A stretch of DNA of 56,700 nucleotides, from sequence record PZ544694.1; one strand, given 5' to 3'. The DNA comes from a phage. The position numbers were made by a program, and so were the translations under genes. The notes under the pieces were generated by a model. It saw nothing but the letters and a program-made list of their open reading frames with translations, was not told where the DNA came from and searched no databases. Shown here one piece after another: positions 5,866 through 42,636 of this stretch. Position 1 is the stretch's first letter. Every line of letters begins with the position of its first letter.

Positions 5866-7899
5866 GTGGAATCGAAAAGAACGTTAATTTTTGACTATGA
5901 AACATATAGCGAACTAGACATAAAGAAAGTAGGCGGTCACAAGTATGCACAGCACCCGTCTACTGAAATTCTAATGGTAGCGTGGAAGTTTACTGACTCG
6001 GACGAAATCGGTTTTTGGGACAACACAATGCCCGAAGAAGATTTAGACGAGTTAAAGGGATATTTGCGCGACGATAACATCATAAAACGGGCATTCAACG
6101 CGCAGTTTGAGCGGTTGATCACTAAACACGTCCTAGGTATCGACACACCGTATGACGTCTGGCGTTGTACGATGGTGGCTGCGTACCACCGAGGTTTTAC
6201 CGGCGGGTTAGACATGGTTGGTAAGGCTCTAGGTTTTAAAGGGGATAAAGCAAAAGACGCAGCAGGTAAACGCCTAATTCAGAAATTTTGTAAACCAAGA
6301 AAGCCAACTAAACTCGACAAAAGTACAAGACACGATGCGGAATCACACCCGGAAGAATGGGAAGCATTCGGAGCCTATTGCCGACAAGACGTGATAGCCG
6401 AAGAAAATATCGACCGCCGTCTGAGTGACATCAAGTATGACATGATCGAATTTGAGTGGGAAGTTTACGCGTTAGACCAGAAAATTAATGACCGCGGAAT
6501 AAATATCGATAACGACTTCATCGAAGCAGCAATAAAGATGGCCGAGACACGCAAGCCACAGATTATCGATGAAATGCGAGAACTTACAGGGCTAGCCAAT
6601 CCCGGGTCTCAGAAACAACTATTAGCGTGGCTACAACAAGAGGGATACCCGTTCAACGACCTATTAGCTGACACCGTGAAAAAAGTCATAAACGAGTATC
6701 CGGACAATGGGATCACAGAAAAAGCGTGTCGAGTTCTTAAACTTCGTCGTAAATCTAACAAAACCTCTCTAAAGAAATACAACAAAATGTTAGATATTGA
6801 AAACGACGACGGTAGGGTACGCGGAACAATTCAATGCTACGGGGGTTCTCGAACCGGACGATTCGCCGGGCGGGGCTTACAAACTCACAACTTCGTAAGA
6901 ACACCGAAGATACTTGAAGACGTCGAAGCTACGGAAATCGCTAAAAAGCTAGTTCTCGACCAAGACATGTGGGCTTTAAACGTTTTTGCTGGCGAACCCA
7001 TGGATATGTTGCCGGGGCTACTACGATCCGCACTAATCCCAACGGTAGGTCGTCGCTTCGTTGTAGCGGACTTGTCATCAATTGAATCGGTAGTAATAGG
7101 TTGGCTTACCGGCTGTAAGTGGTTCCTAGATACCTTGCGGGCTAAAAAAGACTTATATCGCGCATTCGCCTCAGCATGGCTAAAAATTCCTTACGAAGAC
7201 ACCCTCCCATTCCGAGGAAAGGCAAAACCGGCCACACTAGGTTGCGGATATCGACTAGGCGGTGGCGAACTTATTGACGGTAAGAAAACCGGACTTTGGG
7301 GTTACGGTGAAAACATGGGAGTCATGCTAACACAAGAGGAGGCTCACGCTTCGGTAGACGCATTCCGAGAGTTGTGCCCTGAGATTGTTGACGGTTGGTA
7401 TAAACTTGAAGATTGCGTAAAAACCACCATTAAGACGCACAAGACAACCCGATGGAGATCGTTAGTATTCGGGTTTAAAAAACCGTTCTTATGGATTAAG
7501 TTGCCATCGGGGCGGAAACTTTATTACTACCGCCCACGCTTAGTAACAAACACCTACAAGAACCGCAGAGGTGAGACGTACACTCGTCAAGAAATAATGT
7601 ACGAGGGTAAAAAAGATCAAGGCGGTTGGGGTGTTCAAACCACGCACGGCGGGAAATTGATTGAGAATATCGTTCAAGCCATAGCAAGAGATGTCCTAGT
7701 AAACGGCATGTTTAATGCGGAAGAAATAGGTTTCGATATCGTATTCCACGTTCACGATGAAATCATAACGGAAGTCGACGAAGATGACCTGTTAGGGCTA
7801 GACGACCTCATTGATTGTATGGCAGCACCGATATCGTGGGCGCCGGGACTACCATTAGGAGCAGCAGGGTGGGAGGGGTATTTTTACCGTAAAGATTAA
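5866..7899 (+). CDS. DNA polymerase, family A, with 3'-5' exonuclease domain
   Basis: 677 aa, GTG start; exo motif LIFDYETYSELD; pol motif A-like VVADLSSIESVV; motif B-like KAKPATLGCGYRLG; motif C FHVHDEIITE. Confidence 0.8.
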   Translation: MESKRTLIFDYETYSELDIKKVGGHKYAQHPSTEILMVAWKFTDSDEIGFWDNTMPEEDLDELKGYLRDDNIIKRAFNAQFERLITKHVLGIDTPYDVWRCTMVAAYHRGFTGGLDMVGKALGFKGDKAKDAAGKRLIQKFCKPRKPTKLDKSTRHDAESHPEEWEAFGAYCRQDVIAEENIDRRLSDIKYDMIEFEWEVYALDQKINDRGINIDNDFIEAAIKMAETRKPQIIDEMRELTGLANPGSQKQLLAWLQQEGYPFNDLLADTVKKVINEYPDNGITEKACRVLKLRRKSNKTSLKKYNKMLDIENDDGRVRGTIQCYGGSRTGRFAGRGLQTHNFVRTPKILEDVEATEIAKKLVLDQDMWALNVFAGEPMDMLPGLLRSALIPTVGRRFVVADLSSIESVVIGWLTGCKWFLDTLRAKKDLYRAFASAWLKIPYEDTLPFRGKAKPATLGCGYRLGGGELIDGKKTGLWGYGENMGVMLTQEEAHASVDAFRELCPEIVDGWYKLEDCVKTTIKTHKTTRWRSLVFGFKKPFLWIKLPSGRKLYYYRPRLVTNTYKNRRGETYTRQEIMYEGKKDQGGWGVQTTHGGKLIENIVQAIARDVLVNGMFNAEEIGFDIVFHVHDEIITEVDEDDLLGLDDLIDCMAAPISWAPGLPLGAAGWEGYFYRKD

Positions 7900-34986: not shown

Positions 34987-36003
34987 ATGTTAAAACATCA
35001 AGACGGTTTCGACCACTACGCAGATATCGGCAAGAAAGGTTCCGTAGTCGAGCCGTACTTAAAAGCAGCCGGGTATGATATCCGAAATGCTACTGACGAT
35101 ACGTTCCAGATTGACCTAGGTCGTCGTGACGGCGCTAAGAGCCTTAAATTTACCGTAGAACGTAACTCCGCAACCAATGCGTCGCTATCATGGGGGTTCA
35201 CTCCGGCCGGAAACTACGCGTGTTTCGGTTTCGCGATGAAAGCCAATGGTTCTCGTATGCGAGTATGTCGGGTTGAGAACTTGGTCGACGTGGAGTGGGA
35301 TAGCGAAGACGGTAAGCTAGAAATTGATGGCCAAAAAGGGGTAAACCCGCTGATCCTTAATGCGTGGTATTTTTTCGAGATAGAACTTGATAAGTCCGCT
35401 AAGAAAGTAACCGTATGGGTTAATAACGAAAAGCAAATCGAGGCGACCCTTACTACTTCTTGGCCTGAAAAACTCGTTCTGGTATGGGGGCAAGTGGGTA
35501 CAGCGCCCAATGCGGGTATCCAGTACCTAGATGATTTTTACGCTATGGACGATTCGGGGTCGGTAAACACTTCCCGCCTAGGGCCGATTGAGGTTGCTAC
35601 CCGCGCTCCTACTTCTGATGTTACGACCGAATGGGAGATCGTTAACGGCACTAACGAAAATCACTACCAAGTTGCCTCCCAACTGGAGCCGGGGAGACCT
35701 AACGCACCGTATTTACAGTCTAACAAGTCGGGAGCTAAAGACATTTTCCGTTCTAATACGATCCTACCGACTAACAACAAGGTTTTCGGCGTGTCGGTGA
35801 TTGCGTATGCCCGTAAAGGGGACTTAGACGACCGCAAACTCGGTATGGTGATCCAGACTGACGGGGGTTCTGAGAAAGAAGTCCAAGTACCGTTGACCGA
35901 AGACTATAAATACTACCAAGTTACCCACGAACAAACTCCGGGTAATACCGACTGGAATAAAGGCGCTGTCGAAGCATTGCAGTTCGGCATCGTGACTCGA
36001 TAG
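34987..36003 (+). CDS. putative receptor-binding / tail fiber protein, paralog 1
   Basis: 338 aa; shares WYFFEIELDK, LGPIEVATRAPTSDVTTEW, YLQSNKSGAKDIF with ORFs 36004 and 36988. Confidence 0.5.
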   Translation: MLKHQDGFDHYADIGKKGSVVEPYLKAAGYDIRNATDDTFQIDLGRRDGAKSLKFTVERNSATNASLSWGFTPAGNYACFGFAMKANGSRMRVCRVENLVDVEWDSEDGKLEIDGQKGVNPLILNAWYFFEIELDKSAKKVTVWVNNEKQIEATLTTSWPEKLVLVWGQVGTAPNAGIQYLDDFYAMDDSGSVNTSRLGPIEVATRAPTSDVTTEWEIVNGTNENHYQVASQLEPGRPNAPYLQSNKSGAKDIFRSNTILPTNNKVFGVSVIAYARKGDLDDRKLGMVIQTDGGSEKEVQVPLTEDYKYYQVTHEQTPGNTDWNKGAVEALQFGIVTR

Positions 36004-36987
36004 ATGATGCAATTTATGGACGGTTTCGACCAGCTAAAAGATATGCCGTCGGATAAGATGGTAAATTTACTCAACAACTCGGGGTACAACGCAGTACCGC
36101 CGATCCGTATTGCGGAGGGACGTAATACAGAAACCCGATGCTTATACCTAGGTGATGTAAACGAGAACGCAGCAAGCCCGGCAACACTGTCTCGACTTTT
36201 TAACTCCGAGACTAACCGTGTGGTTATCGGTTTTGCGTATTGTGCGGACAAAGTGCGGGACGATATTATCCGTATTCCCGGTTTTGGGGTGCTCGCTTGG
36301 AACCGCGACAATGGTAAAGTCTCCTTGGCCGGTGTTACGGGTCAAGCTATCTTGCTCCTAGGTATCTGGTACTATTTCGAGATCGTCATCAACAAAGAAA
36401 CAAATACTTTCCAAGTTTTTATTAATAACGGTGCGGACTTAGCTGGACAACTACCGGATAGTGTTCGTTTCATGACAGACTACAAATGCGAATGGCCGGG
36501 CGGTTCTGGCGGTAAAAAATTAGATGATATCGTTTTTATCGATGCGCAAGCCGGCAAATACGTTGACCGAGTTGGCCCGATTGAAATACTCACCCGAATG
36601 CCGACGGTGGACGTGGTGAGCGAATGGTCGCCATCGAAAGGCGATAACCACTGGTCTCTTGTCAGTAATCGCCCTCCGAAAGAGGACGAATATATTCAGT
36701 CTAACGTCTCCGGCGCGATGGATACTTTCAAAAGTGAAATCCCGCTCGACGCTAAAGGCGACATCTTGGCCGTGAGTGTCACCGCGATCAACCGTAAATC
36801 TGACGTAGATAATAGACAACTCGGGTTGGTGGTTGGCGAGAAAGACAAACAGTTGGAAAAGGTAGATGAAAAACTTACCTTGACTGACAAAATAAGTTAT
36901 GCTGTATTCGAAAATTCTCCGCTCGGCGCTAATTGGGATCGCGATAATATCCCTGAAACTCCGTTCGGTGTAGTTATTAGACCATAA
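36004..36987 (+). CDS. putative receptor-binding / tail fiber protein, paralog 2
   Basis: 327 aa; WYYFEIVINK, VGPIEILTRMPTVDVVSEW, YIQSNVSGAMDTF. Confidence 0.5.
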   Translation: MMQFMDGFDQLKDMPSDKMVNLLNNSGYNAVPPIRIAEGRNTETRCLYLGDVNENAASPATLSRLFNSETNRVVIGFAYCADKVRDDIIRIPGFGVLAWNRDNGKVSLAGVTGQAILLLGIWYYFEIVINKETNTFQVFINNGADLAGQLPDSVRFMTDYKCEWPGGSGGKKLDDIVFIDAQAGKYVDRVGPIEILTRMPTVDVVSEWSPSKGDNHWSLVSNRPPKEDEYIQSNVSGAMDTFKSEIPLDAKGDILAVSVTAINRKSDVDNRQLGLVVGEKDKQLEKVDEKLTLTDKISYAVFENSPLGANWDRDNIPETPFGVVIRP

Positions 36988-37908
36988 ATGTTTTTCTTCG
37001 AGGGGTTCGAACAGTTCGCCTTCGATGGGGATTCCCCGGCTTTCATGCGTAGAGCCGGGTATACCGTTTCGGGGTCTTTCGGCTTCGGCGCAGGACGTAA
37101 GAACGGCGCAAGCGTCCTACTCGGCCGAGGTCGAATATCCCGAGATTTCCCATCTGATACCGGCAATTTTACCGTAGGTTTCGCGTTCAATATGACCACG
37201 AGAGGAAATCTCGTAGGCATCTCAGGCGGGGATAGTACGCTTAAAGTTGGTGTAGACCAGACCACAGGGTTATTACAGTCCGAGGGAGAGTCAGGTTACG
37301 TTATCCCATTGCGTAACAACTGGTACTATCTAGAAGTGGAAGTAAACAAAGACGCAAAGACGGCCGACGTCTATATCAATGGTAAAAAAGACATTACGGT
37401 TTCGATACCAGATGGCGTAGCGACGGCAGACACGCTCACAATAACATTGCGGGACTTCGACGAGTCGGATTTTGCGGACATTCGCTTCGATGACTTGTAT
37501 TATGCCGACACTACGAGAGTCGGGCCTATCACCGTCACTACTCGCGTTCCGACGAAAGACGTATCGAAAGATTGGGGTGTTTCCGGTGGGGAATCTCACC
37601 ATGAGGTCGTAGCTCCCGCACTACCGAACTTAGTTGACCGGTTCATCTATACGGGGACGAATGGTGCTACGGATTCTTTCACCTCGGAAACCGTGCTATC
37701 AGAGGAGACAGAAGTAAAAGGTGTTTCGGTGATAACACTCCTCCGAAAAGCCACCGTAGATCCAGTTAGCGTAGATGTGTTCACAAACGAGCTAGTTAAA
37801 AACGAAGCTACGTTACCTCGTGATTGGGAGTACCGCTACTCAGAACTTGGAGTGCTCCCGGAGCACGTAATACCGGACTCAACTTTCGGAATAACTCTAA
37901 AAGCGTAA
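36988..37908 (+). CDS. putative receptor-binding / tail fiber protein, paralog 3
   Basis: 306 aa; WYYLEVEVNK, VGPITVTTRVPTKDVSKDW, FIYTGTNGATDSF. Confidence 0.5.
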   Translation: MFFFEGFEQFAFDGDSPAFMRRAGYTVSGSFGFGAGRKNGASVLLGRGRISRDFPSDTGNFTVGFAFNMTTRGNLVGISGGDSTLKVGVDQTTGLLQSEGESGYVIPLRNNWYYLEVEVNKDAKTADVYINGKKDITVSIPDGVATADTLTITLRDFDESDFADIRFDDLYYADTTRVGPITVTTRVPTKDVSKDWGVSGGESHHEVVAPALPNLVDRFIYTGTNGATDSFTSETVLSEETEVKGVSVITLLRKATVDPVSVDVFTNELVKNEATLPRDWEYRYSELGVLPEHVIPDSTFGITLKA

Positions 37909-38646
37909 ATGAAAATTGCCCCTAACATGGGGCTTTCCTATGGTTGGGTGAGAGGCGAGGATTTTTGGGGTGGCCCAATGAACGAGACGCTAACCACCTT
38001 AGATACTGTTACGTTTCTACGCCTACAATCTATCACGTTTAGTGCGCCACCGGCTGACGCTAAAAACGGCGACACCTATTTTATCTATAAAAACCCGACT
38101 GGCCCTTGGGTTGGCCAAGAAAGAAAACTGGCCGTATTGATCGACGGCGTGTGGCAATTCATCGAACCCAAACGAGGTTGGCGAGCATTCTTAGACCCGA
38201 CCAGTGAGTTTATCTGGTGGGACGGGGAGACGTGGCGTATTGAGAATACCGGAGTTGACCCGATCAACCCTAACCCATCTCCCGATGTTGTACCTATGGC
38301 GTTTGATGTATCCGCGACTATTTCGGAGAAGATGTATCCATCGGAAGTGCTCGTACACTTGCCAATTATCGACAATATGTACCTACCGGCTAACATGGCA
38401 CAATCTCAATTCGACGCCCGTAGTGCTTTTCTCGATAAAGCTAAGTTCACTGTGCAGAGAAATAACCAAACTGTCGGCACATTCACTGTCGATCGGGGGC
38501 AATATAACGCCACTTTCGTGACGTCTGGTAGCGTTGCCGTGAGATTTTTCAAAGGTGACAGGCTGACAATCTTAGCTCCGGTTGATACAATCGACTCAGC
38601 CGTTAACTTCGGCTTTATTATTAGATTAATGATTCAGGGGGCTTAA
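37909..38646 (+). CDS. DUF2793-like tail fiber-associated protein
   Basis: 245 aa; GDTYFIYKNPTGPWVGQ...IDGVWQFIEPKRGWRAF...WWDGETW aromatic/Gly pattern. Confidence 0.4.
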   Translation: MKIAPNMGLSYGWVRGEDFWGGPMNETLTTLDTVTFLRLQSITFSAPPADAKNGDTYFIYKNPTGPWVGQERKLAVLIDGVWQFIEPKRGWRAFLDPTSEFIWWDGETWRIENTGVDPINPNPSPDVVPMAFDVSATISEKMYPSEVLVHLPIIDNMYLPANMAQSQFDARSAFLDKAKFTVQRNNQTVGTFTVDRGQYNATFVTSGSVAVRFFKGDRLTILAPVDTIDSAVNFGFIIRLMIQGA

Positions 38647-41600
38647 ATGGGGCTACACATGGGGATCGGCCGTGGCCCTATTGATGAATTGATGGAAATC
38701 GAGGTCGGCGGAAGAACCGCTTGGCGTGGTTCCGTTAAAGAGTCCTCGTTCTTTCGGATACGGGCTGAAAATCTTTTCGGGGGTAAGAAAGCGGAGGGAG
38801 GCATTGAGGGTGGTTTCGAACTCTACATGGGCGATAAGGATCAGGTCGTTAGCGACAAACTTAAATCCATGTTGGGCGGTGGGAGCCAACCGGAGTTTCG
38901 CGGAGTAGCTACCGGCTATTTCGATGGTTTAGTGTCGGCCATGAACCCATACCCGAAAGCGTGGCGATTTAAAATACGTCGCATCTTAAAAGGTTGGGAC
39001 GGTGGGGTGTGGTATCCGGAAAAAGCGGTCATAGAACTTACCGGCCACGATGACGAGGGGAAAGAGTATCCCATCAAGGCGATGAACCCGGCTCACGTTA
39101 TTTACGAGTGTATGACAAACCGAGATTGGGGCCGAGGTATCTCTCGTGACCTACTGTTTGACTCGGAGTTCCGAAAGGTGGCCGATACGTTGTTCGAGGA
39201 GGGGTTCGGGATCTGTATTGCGTGGAGACGCCAAGACACCCTAGAGTCTTTTATCCAGAATATACTTAACCACATTTCAGGCGTGTTATACGTCGATAAG
39301 TTTACCGGTACTTTCAAACTCAAGTTACTTCGTAATGACTACGATGCGGATAACTTGCCGGTGTACGGTTTTGAGAGCGGGTTACTACAAATCGAGGAAG
39401 CGACTAACGGCGCAATCCATGGTCTGATGAATGAGTGTGTCGTTAAATGGTTCAACCCGATCGTCGGTAAAGAGAGTCAAGTTCGAGCACAGAACCTAGC
39501 CCTGATTCAGACTTCCGGCGCCATCAAAAGCGACACATTCACGTATGAGGGGGTGCCAACCGCAAAACTGGCCACTATCATAGCAGAAAGAGACTTACGT
39601 GTTGCGTCTACTAACGTCCGCCGGTTCACCCTAGTTTGTGACCGTCGAGCATGGCGAGTACAACCGGGAGACGTTTTGAAGATTTCCGACCCAAAGACAC
39701 GCGGACTTGAGAGCGTAATCGTTCGTGTAGCGGACACAGAGGAGAGTAAACAATCCGATGGTCAGATACGATTATCTTGCGTACAAGACACGTTCTCGTT
39801 CGACCTGAACACGTTTACTGGTGTTCAAGACCCGTCTTTCCCTAAACCGAACCTAAACCCGGTTCCGGCCAGACGTTTAGTTTATGAGGCGACATACGCA
39901 GAATTGTCGTCCCTATTCCCACTAGGAGAGTTTGAGGCCATCAAGCCGTCTTTCGGGTATTTGCGGGCACAGGCGGAAAAAGGCTCACCGGTAACGATGG
40001 CGTTCGAGATGCACGTCCAAAACCCGACCACTGGAAAGTATGAGAAAACAGGTGCGGGGGATTTCACTGCGCTATTCGAATTACCGGTTGACCTTGGATA
40101 TTTAGACCGCTATATCCGAATGAAAGATCCGGTAGATGAAGACTTGATTGAAGTCGGGGACGTTTTTTACGTCAACCAAGAAATAATCATGATCCAGTCT
40201 ATCGAGGAAGACGGGTTAGTCGAAATACGTCGAGGCGTGTACGACACCGTACCTCACCAACACCCCGCTGGCTCCGTAGTGTGGGATATGGTTCAAGGTG
40301 GCGGGCTTGACCTGACAACCCGACAAGCGGGAGAAACCTTATCGGTGAAGATACTCCCATGGACGCTATCGGGTGGGGTTCTCGACGAGTCTAACGTGTC
40401 CGAAGATGAACTGACTTTCAATTACCGATTCTACCGCCCATACGCTCCGGGTAAAGTAGAACTCACCTCAGTGGAAAGCACGGAACCGAACCCTTGGTTT
40501 AATGGCCATGTTTTACGAGCGGACGTCGGAGAGGCCGAAGTGCCTGACGCCTTGACGATAACGTGGGCGCACCGAGATAGACCGATGCAACAAGACAAGC
40601 CTATTTATCATGAGCAAGATAGTATCGGGCCGGAGCCGGGAACGACATACCGAATTAGTATCCTAAACGCTAAGGGTGAAGTAATCCGCAGAGAAAACGG
40701 GATTACCGGCACACAGTTTGTCTACACTTACGGCCAAGCGAGCCTAGATTTGAACGTGGAAGCGTCAGCCATAGATCCGGTTGCTGGGTACTTGAGATTA
40801 GAGTCTATGCGCGACGGGTTCGAATCGTGGCAAAACTACTTAATACCGATCACCGTTTTCAAGAAACCGCCTCAAATGGCGTATGTTAGTTTCTTAAACC
40901 AATCTGTCGCTCAGGTGTCCGATAAAATCGACCCCGAAGATAAAGACGGAGAGACGGCCGTAGACGCAAAAGCCATGGTTAGTTTTGTCAACCAATCCGT
41001 AGCACAGGAGAGCGAAGATCTATCTTCCGGTGGCGGGGGCCTACCTGATGGCGTGAATGTTAGCTATGTGCGACAACCGGTTTCGCAACAAGGCAAATTA
41101 GTTCCTATCGTAGATAGCCAACTGTTTGAGTTCCCTTACTTAATGTTGCTACGCCATGGGTTCGAACCGTCCGCCTCACAATTCTTCGCTACGGTAGCTA
41201 GACCGTCAGACCGTGTAACCGACGGGTACGATTTGTTCGAGAAAGAGAAGAACGATACAGAGTACGTGAACCAAGGGGCGCAACCGTGGACGCCGTGGGG
41301 GATTCTGTCTAAGGCAATCTCATATCTGGATAATGAGATAATCCTCGATGCTACGTCGGATTCTGACGGGGTTCCTACTGAGGACGCGATGCCGGGCGAC
41401 GTGATTTTCGTCGGAGCCGAAGCGATGGTGATCCGGGGCATCGATGGTAAACGTATTACGGTTGGCCGTGGTTGTGTTGATACAATCCCCGCACTTCATG
41501 GGAAAGGTCAAGTTGTGTGGTTTGTCGACAAACAAATAGCTTCCGGGCAACGTAAATATCACGACGGCCAGACTTGCGTAGTTGCCGTAAGGCCTCATTC

Positions 41601-42426
41601 TCTCGCAGCAGAAATCCAGCCTAAAGACGTGGTAAACAAACAACTGGAAGTGAAACTACGCGCGGATAGACCATATCCACCGGGGTTCTTGCTCGGCAAC
41701 GGTGAGCACTTTTTCAAAGGGTGGGACGCACTGGCCGATAACTTTGACTACTATGACCCGCAAGGCAAAGACTTAGTGATGACGTGGGCGCACCGTAACC
41801 GAGTTCGTCAAGGGGAAACCGTGTTAGACCATCTTGATGTGGGACAACAACGGCCAAGCGACGTAATGTATCGAGTGTGGATCGGGAAACGATATACTCC
41901 TAGATACAGCAATCGCACAGTTACTATCACCATGGGGACGTATTATACTCGCGACGCAGGAATGACGATCAAGGCCGAAGACTTACACGCGTTCGGCAGA
42001 CGAGTAGGGATCTTGACGGAATCCACCGGCTACGTCTATGTTTCGATCACGGTATCCGCTGTCGATGAAAACGAGCTTAGTAGCTGGCAAGGATATAATA
42101 CTCAGTGTAAAGTACCCTCAATTCCGGCCAAGCGAGATGTTGACCCCAATCCGGGAAGACCTGACCCGGGAACTGGCGGTGGCGAAACTGGCGGTGGCGG
42201 AACTGGCGGTGGTACGAACCCCGGCAATCCAGATCCGGGTCAGCCTGATAGACCGAACCCCGACCCCGACCCGGGCAACCCTGATCCAGAACCTAATCCG
42301 GGCAACCCTGACCCTGATCCGGTCGAGCCTCCGCCACCGTTGGTTGTTGCCGGTTGGTCAAACAAGTGGGATCATGATTGGGCGGAACGACTACCAGACC
42401 AAGACGTCAAAGAGGATACTGAATAA
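38647..42426 (+). CDS. host specificity / central tail fiber protein (lambda gpJ-like) with Gly/Pro-rich C-terminal tract
   Basis: 1259 aa; region GISRDLLFDSEF...GFGICIAWRRQDTLESFIQNI colinear with lambda J (GMGKRLGAADVDKW...); C-terminal PNPGRPDPGTGGGETGGGG... at about 42145-42345. Confidence 0.6.
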   Translation: MGLHMGIGRGPIDELMEIEVGGRTAWRGSVKESSFFRIRAENLFGGKKAEGGIEGGFELYMGDKDQVVSDKLKSMLGGGSQPEFRGVATGYFDGLVSAMNPYPKAWRFKIRRILKGWDGGVWYPEKAVIELTGHDDEGKEYPIKAMNPAHVIYECMTNRDWGRGISRDLLFDSEFRKVADTLFEEGFGICIAWRRQDTLESFIQNILNHISGVLYVDKFTGTFKLKLLRNDYDADNLPVYGFESGLLQIEEATNGAIHGLMNECVVKWFNPIVGKESQVRAQNLALIQTSGAIKSDTFTYEGVPTAKLATIIAERDLRVASTNVRRFTLVCDRRAWRVQPGDVLKISDPKTRGLESVIVRVADTEESKQSDGQIRLSCVQDTFSFDLNTFTGVQDPSFPKPNLNPVPARRLVYEATYAELSSLFPLGEFEAIKPSFGYLRAQAEKGSPVTMAFEMHVQNPTTGKYEKTGAGDFTALFELPVDLGYLDRYIRMKDPVDEDLIEVGDVFYVNQEIIMIQSIEEDGLVEIRRGVYDTVPHQHPAGSVVWDMVQGGGLDLTTRQAGETLSVKILPWTLSGGVLDESNVSEDELTFNYRFYRPYAPGKVELTSVESTEPNPWFNGHVLRADVGEAEVPDALTITWAHRDRPMQQDKPIYHEQDSIGPEPGTTYRISILNAKGEVIRRENGITGTQFVYTYGQASLDLNVEASAIDPVAGYLRLESMRDGFESWQNYLIPITVFKKPPQMAYVSFLNQSVAQVSDKIDPEDKDGETAVDAKAMVSFVNQSVAQESEDLSSGGGGLPDGVNVSYVRQPVSQQGKLVPIVDSQLFEFPYLMLLRHGFEPSASQFFATVARPSDRVTDGYDLFEKEKNDTEYVNQGAQPWTPWGILSKAISYLDNEIILDATSDSDGVPTEDAMPGDVIFVGAEAMVIRGIDGKRITVGRGCVDTIPALHGKGQVVWFVDKQIASGQRKYHDGQTCVVAVRPHSLAAEIQPKDVVNKQLEVKLRADRPYPPGFLLGNGEHFFKGWDALADNFDYYDPQGKDLVMTWAHRNRVRQGETVLDHLDVGQQRPSDVMYRVWIGKRYTPRYSNRTVTITMGTYYTRDAGMTIKAEDLHAFGRRVGILTESTGYVYVSITVSAVDENELSSWQGYNTQCKVPSIPAKRDVDPNPGRPDPGTGGGETGGGGTGGGTNPGNPDPGQPDRPNPDPDPGNPDPEPNPGNPDPDPVEPPPPLVVAGWSNKWDHDWAERLPDQDVKEDTE

Positions 42427-42636
42427 ATGGAAAAAAGAATTTACATCAAACATGTTCGTCAAGCCGGATATTGTGCTAACGGCGTAGGCCGGGTATTAGA
42501 GCGGATCGGTGTTGACGAAAGAGACTTTTTACAGAACGGGTTGCTGATCACCCCGCAACTGGCTAACAACACAAACCCGATGATACGACGTGTGGTAGAA
42601 ATCGCACTCGCTGATAGTGAGGTAAAACGTGGGTAA
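42427..42636 (+). CDS. hypothetical protein (tail module)
   Basis: 69 aa frame-1 ORF. Confidence 0.3.
   Translation: MEKRIYIKHVRQAGYCANGVGRVLERIGVDERDFLQNGLLITPQLANNTNPMIRRVVEIALADSEVKRG

Follow-up and report, generated by a model that had tools for sequence, protein, structure and literature searches.

The stretch of phage DNA analysed here (sequence record PZ544694.1, 56,700 bases; hereafter the window) encodes a J-like tail-tip hub of 1259 amino acids (aa) that is 100% identical to gp49, the 'tail protein' of Escherichia phage E21, and a low-complexity tract rich in glycine and proline lies close to the end of this protein. Our preferred explanation, to which we assign a probability of roughly 0.6, is that the tract is a disordered acidic tether between the last module of the hub and a plug that docks the trimer of a DUF2793 fibre. 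A likely function can be proposed because a conserved Trp-rich peptide follows the tract. Besides, the tract is better described as a length-constrained tether than as a collagen-like segment or a mutational hotspot because its insertions and deletions (indels) are one-codon steps and its Pro-rich half appears to be under purifying selection. The parts of the hub that carry the argument are the following (window positions, strand).

38647-42426, + strand: coding sequence (CDS) of the J-like tail-tip hub, an open reading frame (ORF) of 1259 aa; orthologue of phage Chi BH2P / YSD1_29
41095-42150, + strand: module copy 2, aa 817-1168; globular, ending in SSWQGYNTQCKVPSIP
42136-42339, + strand: Gly/Pro-rich acidic tract, aa 1164-1231, DVDPNPGRPDPGTGGGETGGGGTGGGTNPGNPDPGQPDRPNPDPDPGNPDPEPNPGNPDPDPVEPPPP; an outlier in composition and entropy
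42172-42216, + strand: Gly block TGGGETGGGGTGGGT, aa 1176-1190; encoded by a 15-bp tandem repeat (Tandem Repeats Finder, TRF; repeat family D3)
42217-42339, + strand: acidic part rich in Pro, aa 1191-1231; contains the (P-x)n runs PNPDPDPG, PDPEPNPG and PDPDPV and closes with the conserved DPVEPP
42340-42423, + strand: conserved C-terminal peptide of 28 aa that follows the tract, LVVAGWSNKWDHDWAERLPDQDVKEDTE; proposed DUF2793 plug

The composition of the tract sets it apart from everything else that the phage encodes. Proline and glycine make up 57% of its 68 residues, the next-best segment of that length among all 85 encoded proteins reaching 32%, in the tape measure, and its Shannon entropy (2.59 bits vs 3.89 +/- 0.16) is the lowest of the phage proteome. 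Only two of the 68 residues are hydrophobic, 13 are acidic and two basic. At the DNA level, the GC content is 66% in the tract vs 51% in the gene; a 15-bp unit, AACTGGCGGTGGCGA, is repeated 2.8 times at 42171-42212 (96% match, TRF score 77), ACCCCG is repeated 2.7 times at 42257-42272, and four imperfect 18-nt copies of the form CCNGAYCCGGG... are also found. This repetitiveness and this composition are far beyond chance. The first-pass annotation, made from the sequence of the window alone, had placed the tract at the C-terminus of a 1259-aa protein and had described it as the peptide PNPGRP...VEPPPP, encoded by repetitive DNA over 42145-42345. The ORF, the peptide and the repetitive DNA are all real, and E21 (NC_052983 / MN604053) has the same tract, in frame and with 100% identity. 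The start of the peptide also stands, with a leading DVD that extends the tract to 42136. The peptide ends at 42339, however, so that the proposed span overshoots the tract by 6 nt, and the tract is not C-terminal, since the 28 conserved residues LVVAGWSNKWDHDWAERLPDQDVKEDTE come after it.

The same annotation had suggested a flexible linker and had named disorder prediction as a way to check it. In an AlphaFold2 (AF2) model built with 16 trimmed homologues, the tract has a pLDDT (predicted local distance difference test score) of 28-49 and no secondary structure at all, vs more than 90 in the adjacent module copy 2 (model residues 73-424, corresponding to aa 817-1168). This 16-sequence run was used instead of a run from a 3-sequence alignment, which gave a mean pLDDT of 39. 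Low complexity, few hydrophobic residues, low pLDDT and a composition that is kept while the sequence is not are the marks of a disordered interdomain linker, and all four are found here. The model therefore supports the suggestion that the tract is a flexible disordered linker beside a folded module.

A perfect 10-nt inverted repeat (42192-42201 / 42330-42339) is present because the reverse complement of a Gly codon (GGN) is a Pro codon (CCN). An RNA structure within the tract was considered and rejected, the z-score of the fold being only -1.2. The region of the 15-bp repeat (42171-42213) matches 42-43 nt, at 90-95% identity, in Vibrio cyclitrophicus 'PE' elements (PQ189322, PQ189323 and 10 other records). 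These elements are 8-11 kb long and hold up to 13-14 matching places each, presumably Gly-rich repeat genes with the same codons; the match is probably a low-complexity convergence.

C-terminal peptide and DUF2793 fibre gene

No other part of the C-terminal region of the hub is as conserved as the 28-residue peptide. The DNA that encodes this peptide keeps 84% identity into another genus, where its flanks do not align. The peptide bears three tryptophans spaced by four (W1237, W1241 and W1245, within GWSNKWDHDW at 42352-42381); alignment A4 shows no change at W493 and W501 and almost none at W497 and D498. A plug, as understood here, consists of three hydrophobic or aromatic residues spaced by four within the last ~30 residues of the hub, and E21 has one, which the tract separates from the module. 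Among 151 representatives of the hub family, 53 have the pattern [WYF]x3[WYF]x3[WYF] within their last 35 residues, vs 3.9% of internal windows. The family comprises a 'direct' form, ending at most 45 aa past the module, in which the triad is present in 22 of the 39 representatives, and a 'tethered' form, ending 46-170 aa past the module, in which it is present in 21 of 24. All 21 have 36-49% proline plus glycine (P+G), and the three proteins of tethered length that lack the triad have at most 17%. The tract-less relatives end directly in G-Φ-G-x-x-Φ-G-x-x-Φ-G, and intermediates connect GWSxxWDHxWA with GWGxxWGxxWG (GWGEKWDHGWAG, GWGENWSNGWNG and GWSGEWDKAWGST). From these sequences, we infer that the Trp triad is homologous to the G-Φ-G plug.

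The gene for the proposed partner of the plug is the neighbour of the hub gene.

37909-38646, + strand: DUF2793 'tail fiber' protein, 245 aa (E21 gp48); Pfam DUF2793 at aa 25-110 (E = 3.3e-23)

In the real E21 genome, gp48 lies directly downstream of the hub gene, with a 1-nt overlap; its product weakly matches the fibre of phage R4C (8gtc_S, E = 0.02). An orthologue of gp48 follows the hub gene within -8 to +5 nt at every locus with enough downstream DNA (~35 Casjensviridae loci). A DUF2793 gene is also next in more distant relatives, namely L039 and L040 (~30% identity, with a split hub) and L047, L048, L049 and L050, which include tethered and direct kinds. The reverse test was made with six other phages picked through their DUF2793 gene: all six upstream hubs are tract-less and end in a period-4 Y/L/F-Gly motif (GYGNGYGFGYGV, GYGSVYGYSYGGV, GYGNSYGFDYGE, GLGNNLGNYLGGL, GYGVGYGNYYGGV and YGSAYGNYG). 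Conservation of the C-terminal triad goes along with that of the downstream DUF2793 gene.

A mechanism may be proposed by analogy with phage JBD30, in which the C-terminus of the hub gp53 plugs into the centre of a three-helix bundle made up of the N-terminal domains of the trimeric receptor-binding protein (RBP) gp54 (PMC11445458). The E21 peptide would correspond to the terminus G-Φ-G-x-x-Φ-G-x-x-Φ-G of the tract-less relatives and, since the JBD30 hub C-terminus inserts into the RBP bundle, each of the three E21 hub subunits would hold one gp48 trimer, docked by the triad. The last folded module of the hub would be joined to the 28-residue peptide first by a flexible hinge rich in Gly (aa 1176-1190) and then by a Pro-rich (P-x)n segment that is stiffer and extended (aa 1191-1231). 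Each trimer of the 245-aa DUF2793 protein would then be on a leash of ~70-80 residues, which by our own estimate could span ~8 nm in a coiled state and as much as ~20-25 nm when extended. In that case, the role of the tract would be to provide reach and flexibility, and E21 would have a mobile leash in place of the rigid tripod of equivalent trimers that is present in JBD30 and R4C.

Several observations weigh against this scenario. The insertion of a hub peptide into a fibre bundle is known only for JBD30, and not for the E21 or Chi peptide; in the gene transfer agent (GTA) RcGTA and in R4C, the partner of the fibre is a folded 'fibre-binding domain' and not a terminal peptide. The homology of the triad with the G-Φ-G motif is based on position, periodicity and intermediates and not on a scored alignment, as the hidden Markov model (HMM) alignments stop at the end of the module. 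Within the direct form, 17 of the 39 representatives lack the triad, although some of them look like truncated gene calls. AF2 predicts only a low-confidence helix in the peptide (aa 1239-1247, pLDDT ~42-47). Finally, immunogold labelling is reported to locate YSD1_29 along the long fibre, and a 20-nm leash alone cannot account for a fibre of ~220 nm.

These difficulties leave some room for another role of the peptide. A Trp-rich acidic peptide at the end of a disordered line could bind a host structure (flagellin, a lipopolysaccharide sugar or a metal) or latch onto its own hub, and the DUF2793 fibre would then attach elsewhere, for instance to module copy 2. Surfaces that bind carbohydrates or polyproline typically display Trp/Tyr triads, the RcGTA and R4C fibres are bound by a folded domain rather than by a terminal peptide, and module copy 2 is both conserved and well folded. 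Nevertheless, the triad is also found in relatives that have no tract, its JBD30 counterpart is buried in the RBP bundle and not exposed, and it co-occurs with a downstream DUF2793 gene at every locus tested, whatever the host. We thus regard such a role as rather unlikely.

Conservation and variation of the tract

The conservation of the tract was studied in a distant set made up of other Casjensviridae genera (Kokobel1, Saba and SLP-22), 23 IMG/VR loci retrieved by back-translating the pattern GWSxxWDHxWA, two proteins from Logan with ~30% identity and ~25 representatives of clusters that an exhaustive HMM search had found. When the homologues were left untrimmed, the internal duplication of the hub led MAFFT to misalign them globally, and that alignment was left out. 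A search of a protein index with aa 800-1259 was dominated by low-complexity words and gave only two matches, and none when the tract was removed from the query; close relatives seem to be absent from that index. All 46 distinct homologues, including Chi BH2P (PDB 8VJH), share the order ...WQGY..LPS.., tract, aromatic triad. The length of the tract is 64-118 aa (median 81) in the 46 sequences and 73-87 aa in the 23 that belong to the Casjensviridae. Its mean fractions are 0.50 for P+G, 0.19 for acidic and 0.03 for basic residues, and in 45 of the 46 homologues the first half is richer in Gly (0.31 vs 0.09) and the second half richer in Pro (0.38 vs 0.23). The sequence itself turns over, and only DP(V/I)EPP near the end of the tract and W-x3-W-D-x2-W after it are kept.

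At a shorter evolutionary distance, 30 records are 94-100% identical to the hub gene, and 12 of them (94-99% identity) were aligned over ~3.8 kb. All the internal indels of these 12 genomes, of four kinds, fall within the tract, which represents 5% of the gene, and their sites are the 15-bp repeat and the CCN run. One additional codon (+3 nt) is present in the Gly block of four phages, and +3 nt at 42336 turns PPPP into PPPPP in two. Frameshifts of +1 and +4 nt in the Gly block split the gene in pPM01 (PV786929) and AS-M1_NWU (OR506460), both of them poorly curated records, the former flagged as UNVERIFIED and the latter labelled as an Enterococcus phage. The Gly block, for which the variants TGGGETGGGGSDGGGT, TGGGGSDGGGSDGGGT, TGGGETGGGGSDGGT and TGGGETGGGETGGGT were found, is the only fast-changing part of the tract: 6 of its 15 codons differ at the amino-acid level, and most indels are there. 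In the Pro-rich half, 17 codons vary only synonymously and a single one with a change of amino acid, which points to purifying selection. From these alignments, the tract appears as the indel site of the gene, but one that evolves in single-codon steps and most of which is under purifying selection.

This pattern bears on two other scenarios. The first is that of a slippage-prone hypervariable region, in which changes in the number of GGCGGTGG and CCN repeats would diversify or switch the tail-tip protein. The first-pass annotation had called the tract a likely hotspot for slippage and had suggested a comparison of its length among relatives. The comparison bears out part of the idea, as the four kinds of indel of the 12 close relatives are confined to the tract, two of them are frameshifts in the 15-bp repeat, and 6 of the 15 Gly-block codons vary in amino acid. 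Yet, the in-frame changes amount to +/-1 codon, the in-frame 15-bp unit is present in only 2.8 copies, and the length is held at 73-87 aa across the Casjensviridae, which is not what is expected from a contingency locus or from a hotspot of length variation. Moreover, the two frameshifted records are of low quality, a frameshift would delete the most conserved peptide of the region, and the Pro-rich part is under purifying selection. A switch based on slippage is consequently improbable.

The second scenario is that of a neutral low-complexity filler, a tolerated expansion whose length and composition would have no role. The poor conservation of the sequence between genera and the relatives that work without a tract would agree with it. 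By contrast, the narrow length, the Gly-then-Pro polarity, the acidity and DPVEPP are kept in 45-46 of 46 homologues that share less than 35% identity, and the Pro-rich part varies synonymously among close relatives, so that this scenario, too, has little in its favor. Lastly, a collagen-like triple helix of the three hub subunits, which the first-pass annotation had evoked and with which the high Gly and Pro content and a trimeric state (by homology with Chi and JBD30) would be compatible, is refuted at the sequence level and highly improbable, as collagen requires an uninterrupted (Gly-X-Y)n, typically of at least 10 triplets, while the longest run here has four triplets and lies within GGGG blocks, Gly does not occupy every third position and is irregularly spaced in the Pro-rich half, and AF2 predicts no structure.

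Hub gene, upstream modules and source record

The identity of the hub is supported by several searches. Pfam Phage-tail_3 (PF13550) is found in its N-terminal half, at aa 196-362 (E = 3.8e-7; 30.6 bits for a cutoff of 23), and in PHROGs the protein matches phrog_6284, a 'tail protein' family, over its full length. In the PDB, aa 1-1251 match the Chi 'minor tail protein' 8VJH_A (E = 0) and aa 3-735 the JBD30 baseplate hub 8RK3 (E = 1.6e-116). In the real genome of E21, the gene for the 1259-aa hub comes after those for the tape measure, the distal tail protein (562 aa), the BR0599 Fe-S hub (271 aa) and two proteins of 78 and 69 aa, in this order, and before that for the DUF2793 'tail fiber'; Pfam TMP_3 and Phage_BR0599 were found on genes near the hub. 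Phage-tail_3, the full-length structural homologue and the gene order place the protein in the lambda-J / GTA-g15-like class of hubs, and the E21 gene set is a GTA-like / lambda-like tail-tip module.

Two regions upstream of module copy 2 complete the description of the hub.

40051-40878, + strand: module copy 1, aa 469-744; beta-sandwich and fibronectin-like domains, with RPYAPG and TWAHRDR motifs
40879-41088, + strand: three copies of a 12-aa motif between the module copies, separated by acidic or Gly-rich spacers (AYVSFLNQSVAQ at 40879-40914, AMVSFVNQSVAQ at 40972-41007 and VNVSYVRQPVSQ at 41053-41088)

The two copies of the module, which is ~270 aa long, are 29% identical over 194 aa (BLASTP, E = 2e-14) and have RPY(A/P)PG and TWAHR(D/N)R in common. 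Module copy 1 is the part resolved in the Chi and JBD30 structures, the alignment with the JBD30 hub reaching residue 717. Module copy 2 is absent from the cryo-EM model of Chi; a Foldseek search with its predicted model retrieved 8rk3_b and 8vjh_A at ~20% identity, in both cases through their first module copy, and, as the next matches, fibronectin-III tandems. The internal duplication that the first-pass annotation had noticed between FLNQSVAQ and FVNQSVAQ exists, at 40879-40914 and 40972-41007, but it is in fact a triplication, with VNVSYVRQPVSQ as the third copy, and it is framed by the larger duplicated modules. The three motifs (hhVSxhxQxxAQ) all align in the 16 homologues (26-45% identity) and are also found in Chi; AF2 predicts this region as strands, with a pLDDT of only 36-43. 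They occupy the position where the tract-less hubs bear their C-terminal plug. Three paralogous proteins of ~306-338 aa (phrog_2448; window 34987-37908) are encoded downstream of the hub in the real genome, and the three motifs might be docking sites for them.

The start of the hub gene is probably misplaced in the window. A GTG codon 42 nt upstream (5959-6000 of locus L001), preceded by a GAGG ribosome-binding site, would add MGKFKKATAGYSYY; this start is annotated in most relatives, and the sequence of the Chi protein in the PDB is offset by 15 residues. If the gene starts at this GTG, the CDS of the window is therefore short of 14 N-terminal residues. In the distant relatives L039 (6198-10379), L040 (6540-10412), L047, L049 and L050, two adjacent genes only 3-9 nt apart take the place of the single hub gene, one for an N-terminal hub (485-604 aa) and one for a protein that bears the module (278-803 aa). 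The split point corresponds to E21 aa ~470. Either a gene fusion gave rise to the fused hub of E21 and Chi, or read-through joins the two halves of the split forms.

The window itself is not native DNA. Its 56,700 bases consist of 85 ORFs tiled end to end in frame 1 of the + strand, with neither gaps nor overlaps. A block-by-block BLAST showed that each gene is identical to one gene of E21 (Casjensviridae, Lavrentievavirus), the intergenic spacers being gone. It is thus a concatenation of the E21 CDSs, all of them in coding orientation. As these run in ascending order of the record and the J-like gene is on the minus strand of E21, the genes stand in the opposite order to that of the real minus-strand genome. 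The findings on the tract are untouched by this because the tract lies within one CDS. Conversely, claims made from the window on intergenic regions, junctions, overlaps or gene order are suspect, and an ORF of 149 aa in frame +2 (42038-42487) was rejected as an artefact, as it crosses the artificial CDS junction 42426/42427. A similar scrambling is seen in the record of Proteus phage Q29 (L003, GenBank OM962992.1; 1-7629), whose annotated genes match E21 in the + orientation and in mirrored order. This record also contains an unannotated, reverse-complemented piece of 201 nt, and its J-like gene, which has lost its stop codon, is given as a mere misc_feature. Phages 94-99% identical over the J-like gene have been deposited under Escherichia, Pseudomonas, Enterococcus, Staphylococcus and Salmonella, and 19-21 of them are Proteus mirabilis phages. 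Several of these host labels are probably wrong, for example through carry-over of a Proteus phage.

Comparison with known systems

The closest characterized relative of the E21 hub is BH2P of phage Chi (gp31, PDB 8VJH), another member of the Casjensviridae, which is a full-length orthologue. According to papers that cite the structure, 8VJH_A is BH2P and is identical to YSD1_29 of phage YSD1. Chi has the same order as E21, i.e., hub, module 1, three motifs, module 2, Gly/Pro tract and GWSxxWDHxWA peptide. Its tract is followed by GWSLSWDHGWAMTLPD, and a DUF2793 gene lies downstream as in E21. The differences are a distance of 84 aa between the anchors (75 in E21), the sequence of the tract and a module 2 that is ~37% identical. 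Only 769 of the 1296 residues of 8vjh_A are modelled, hence the tract and the peptide have no experimental structure, and the C-terminal region of BH2P/YSD1_29 has been described as too flexible for analysis (PMC12264135). The protein whose C-terminal half has thus resisted structure determination is also reported to label the long flagellum-binding fibre.

JBD30 provides the docking model. Its homologous hub ends in the period-4 motif GLGFRLGEELGG, and the trimer encoded by the next gene accepts the hub C-terminus, as proposed for E21; the end of this hub, HGLGFRLGEELGGV, was aligned by HMMER to GYGSVYGYSYGGV of phage Ab19. The RBPs of the JBD30-related phages DMS3 and JBD26 bear an N-terminal DUF2793 domain (Harvey et al.) and, by homology with them, the N-terminal domain of JBD30 gp54 is a DUF2793 domain as well. 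Since JBD30 has one module and no tract, its plug comes directly after the fibronectin-like domain, with its three RBP trimers arranged as a rigid tripod. E21 differs from it by a second module, a disordered tether of ~70 aa, and Trp with Asp/His where JBD30 has Leu with Gly.

RcGTA and R4C share the E21 gene set (tape measure, distal tail protein, BR0599 Fe-S hub, large hub and DUF2793 fibre). In both, the C-terminal part of the large hub, g15 (PMC7296036) and the 'megatron' (PMC10276861) respectively, holds three trimers of the DUF2793 fibre. The fibres of RcGTA are mobile on a 20-residue linker (PMC7296036), and the R4C fibre, of 230 aa, has rod, knob and foot domains and is present in 9 copies (PMC10276861). 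Contrary to what is proposed for E21, the partner of these fibres is a folded domain, and the RcGTA linker has 20 residues vs ~70. No sequence similarity was detected between the C-terminal region of the E21 hub and the fibre-binding domain of the megatron.

The hub family, the synteny of the hub with DUF2793 genes and the docking mode were already known; as a disordered linker the tract is ordinary, and its position is what makes it interesting. The tethered variant and the period-4 motif as a general signature were not found described in the literature searched, which did not include the Chi structure paper. A more tentative proposal is that, in the Chi-like lineage, the insertion of an acidic, Gly-then-Pro leash of ~70-85 residues between the last domain of the hub and its plug turned a rigid DUF2793 tripod, as in JBD30 and R4C, into three independently mobile binders. 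A tether of selected length would then be part of the structural basis of the flexible 'fibre' of the flagellotropic Chi-like phages, and the period-4 aromatic motif would be a general signature, not named before, of the association between hubs and DUF2793 proteins in many siphophages. If the combination of a leash and a JBD30-type plug is correct, it offers a testable model for the attachment of distal host-recognition proteins in the Chi-like phages of Proteus, Salmonella, Providencia and E. coli, and the plug and the DUF2793 N-terminal domain would make up a modular junction usable for swapping receptor-binding proteins.

The tract also recalls spacers from unrelated systems. In its alternating Pro runs, it is similar to TonB, whose Pro-rich spacer is extended. 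Residues 48-131 of the filamentous-phage protein g3p (1G3P, 2G3P; EGGGSEGGGSEGGGT...NPANPNP) align with hub aa 1149-1232 (E = 0.035-0.19), but the match is driven by low complexity and not significant, and homology was rejected. The Gly-rich linkers of g3p and the (P-X)n spacers of the TonB type are therefore analogies of behavior, the former for a flexible hinge and the latter for an extended spacer.

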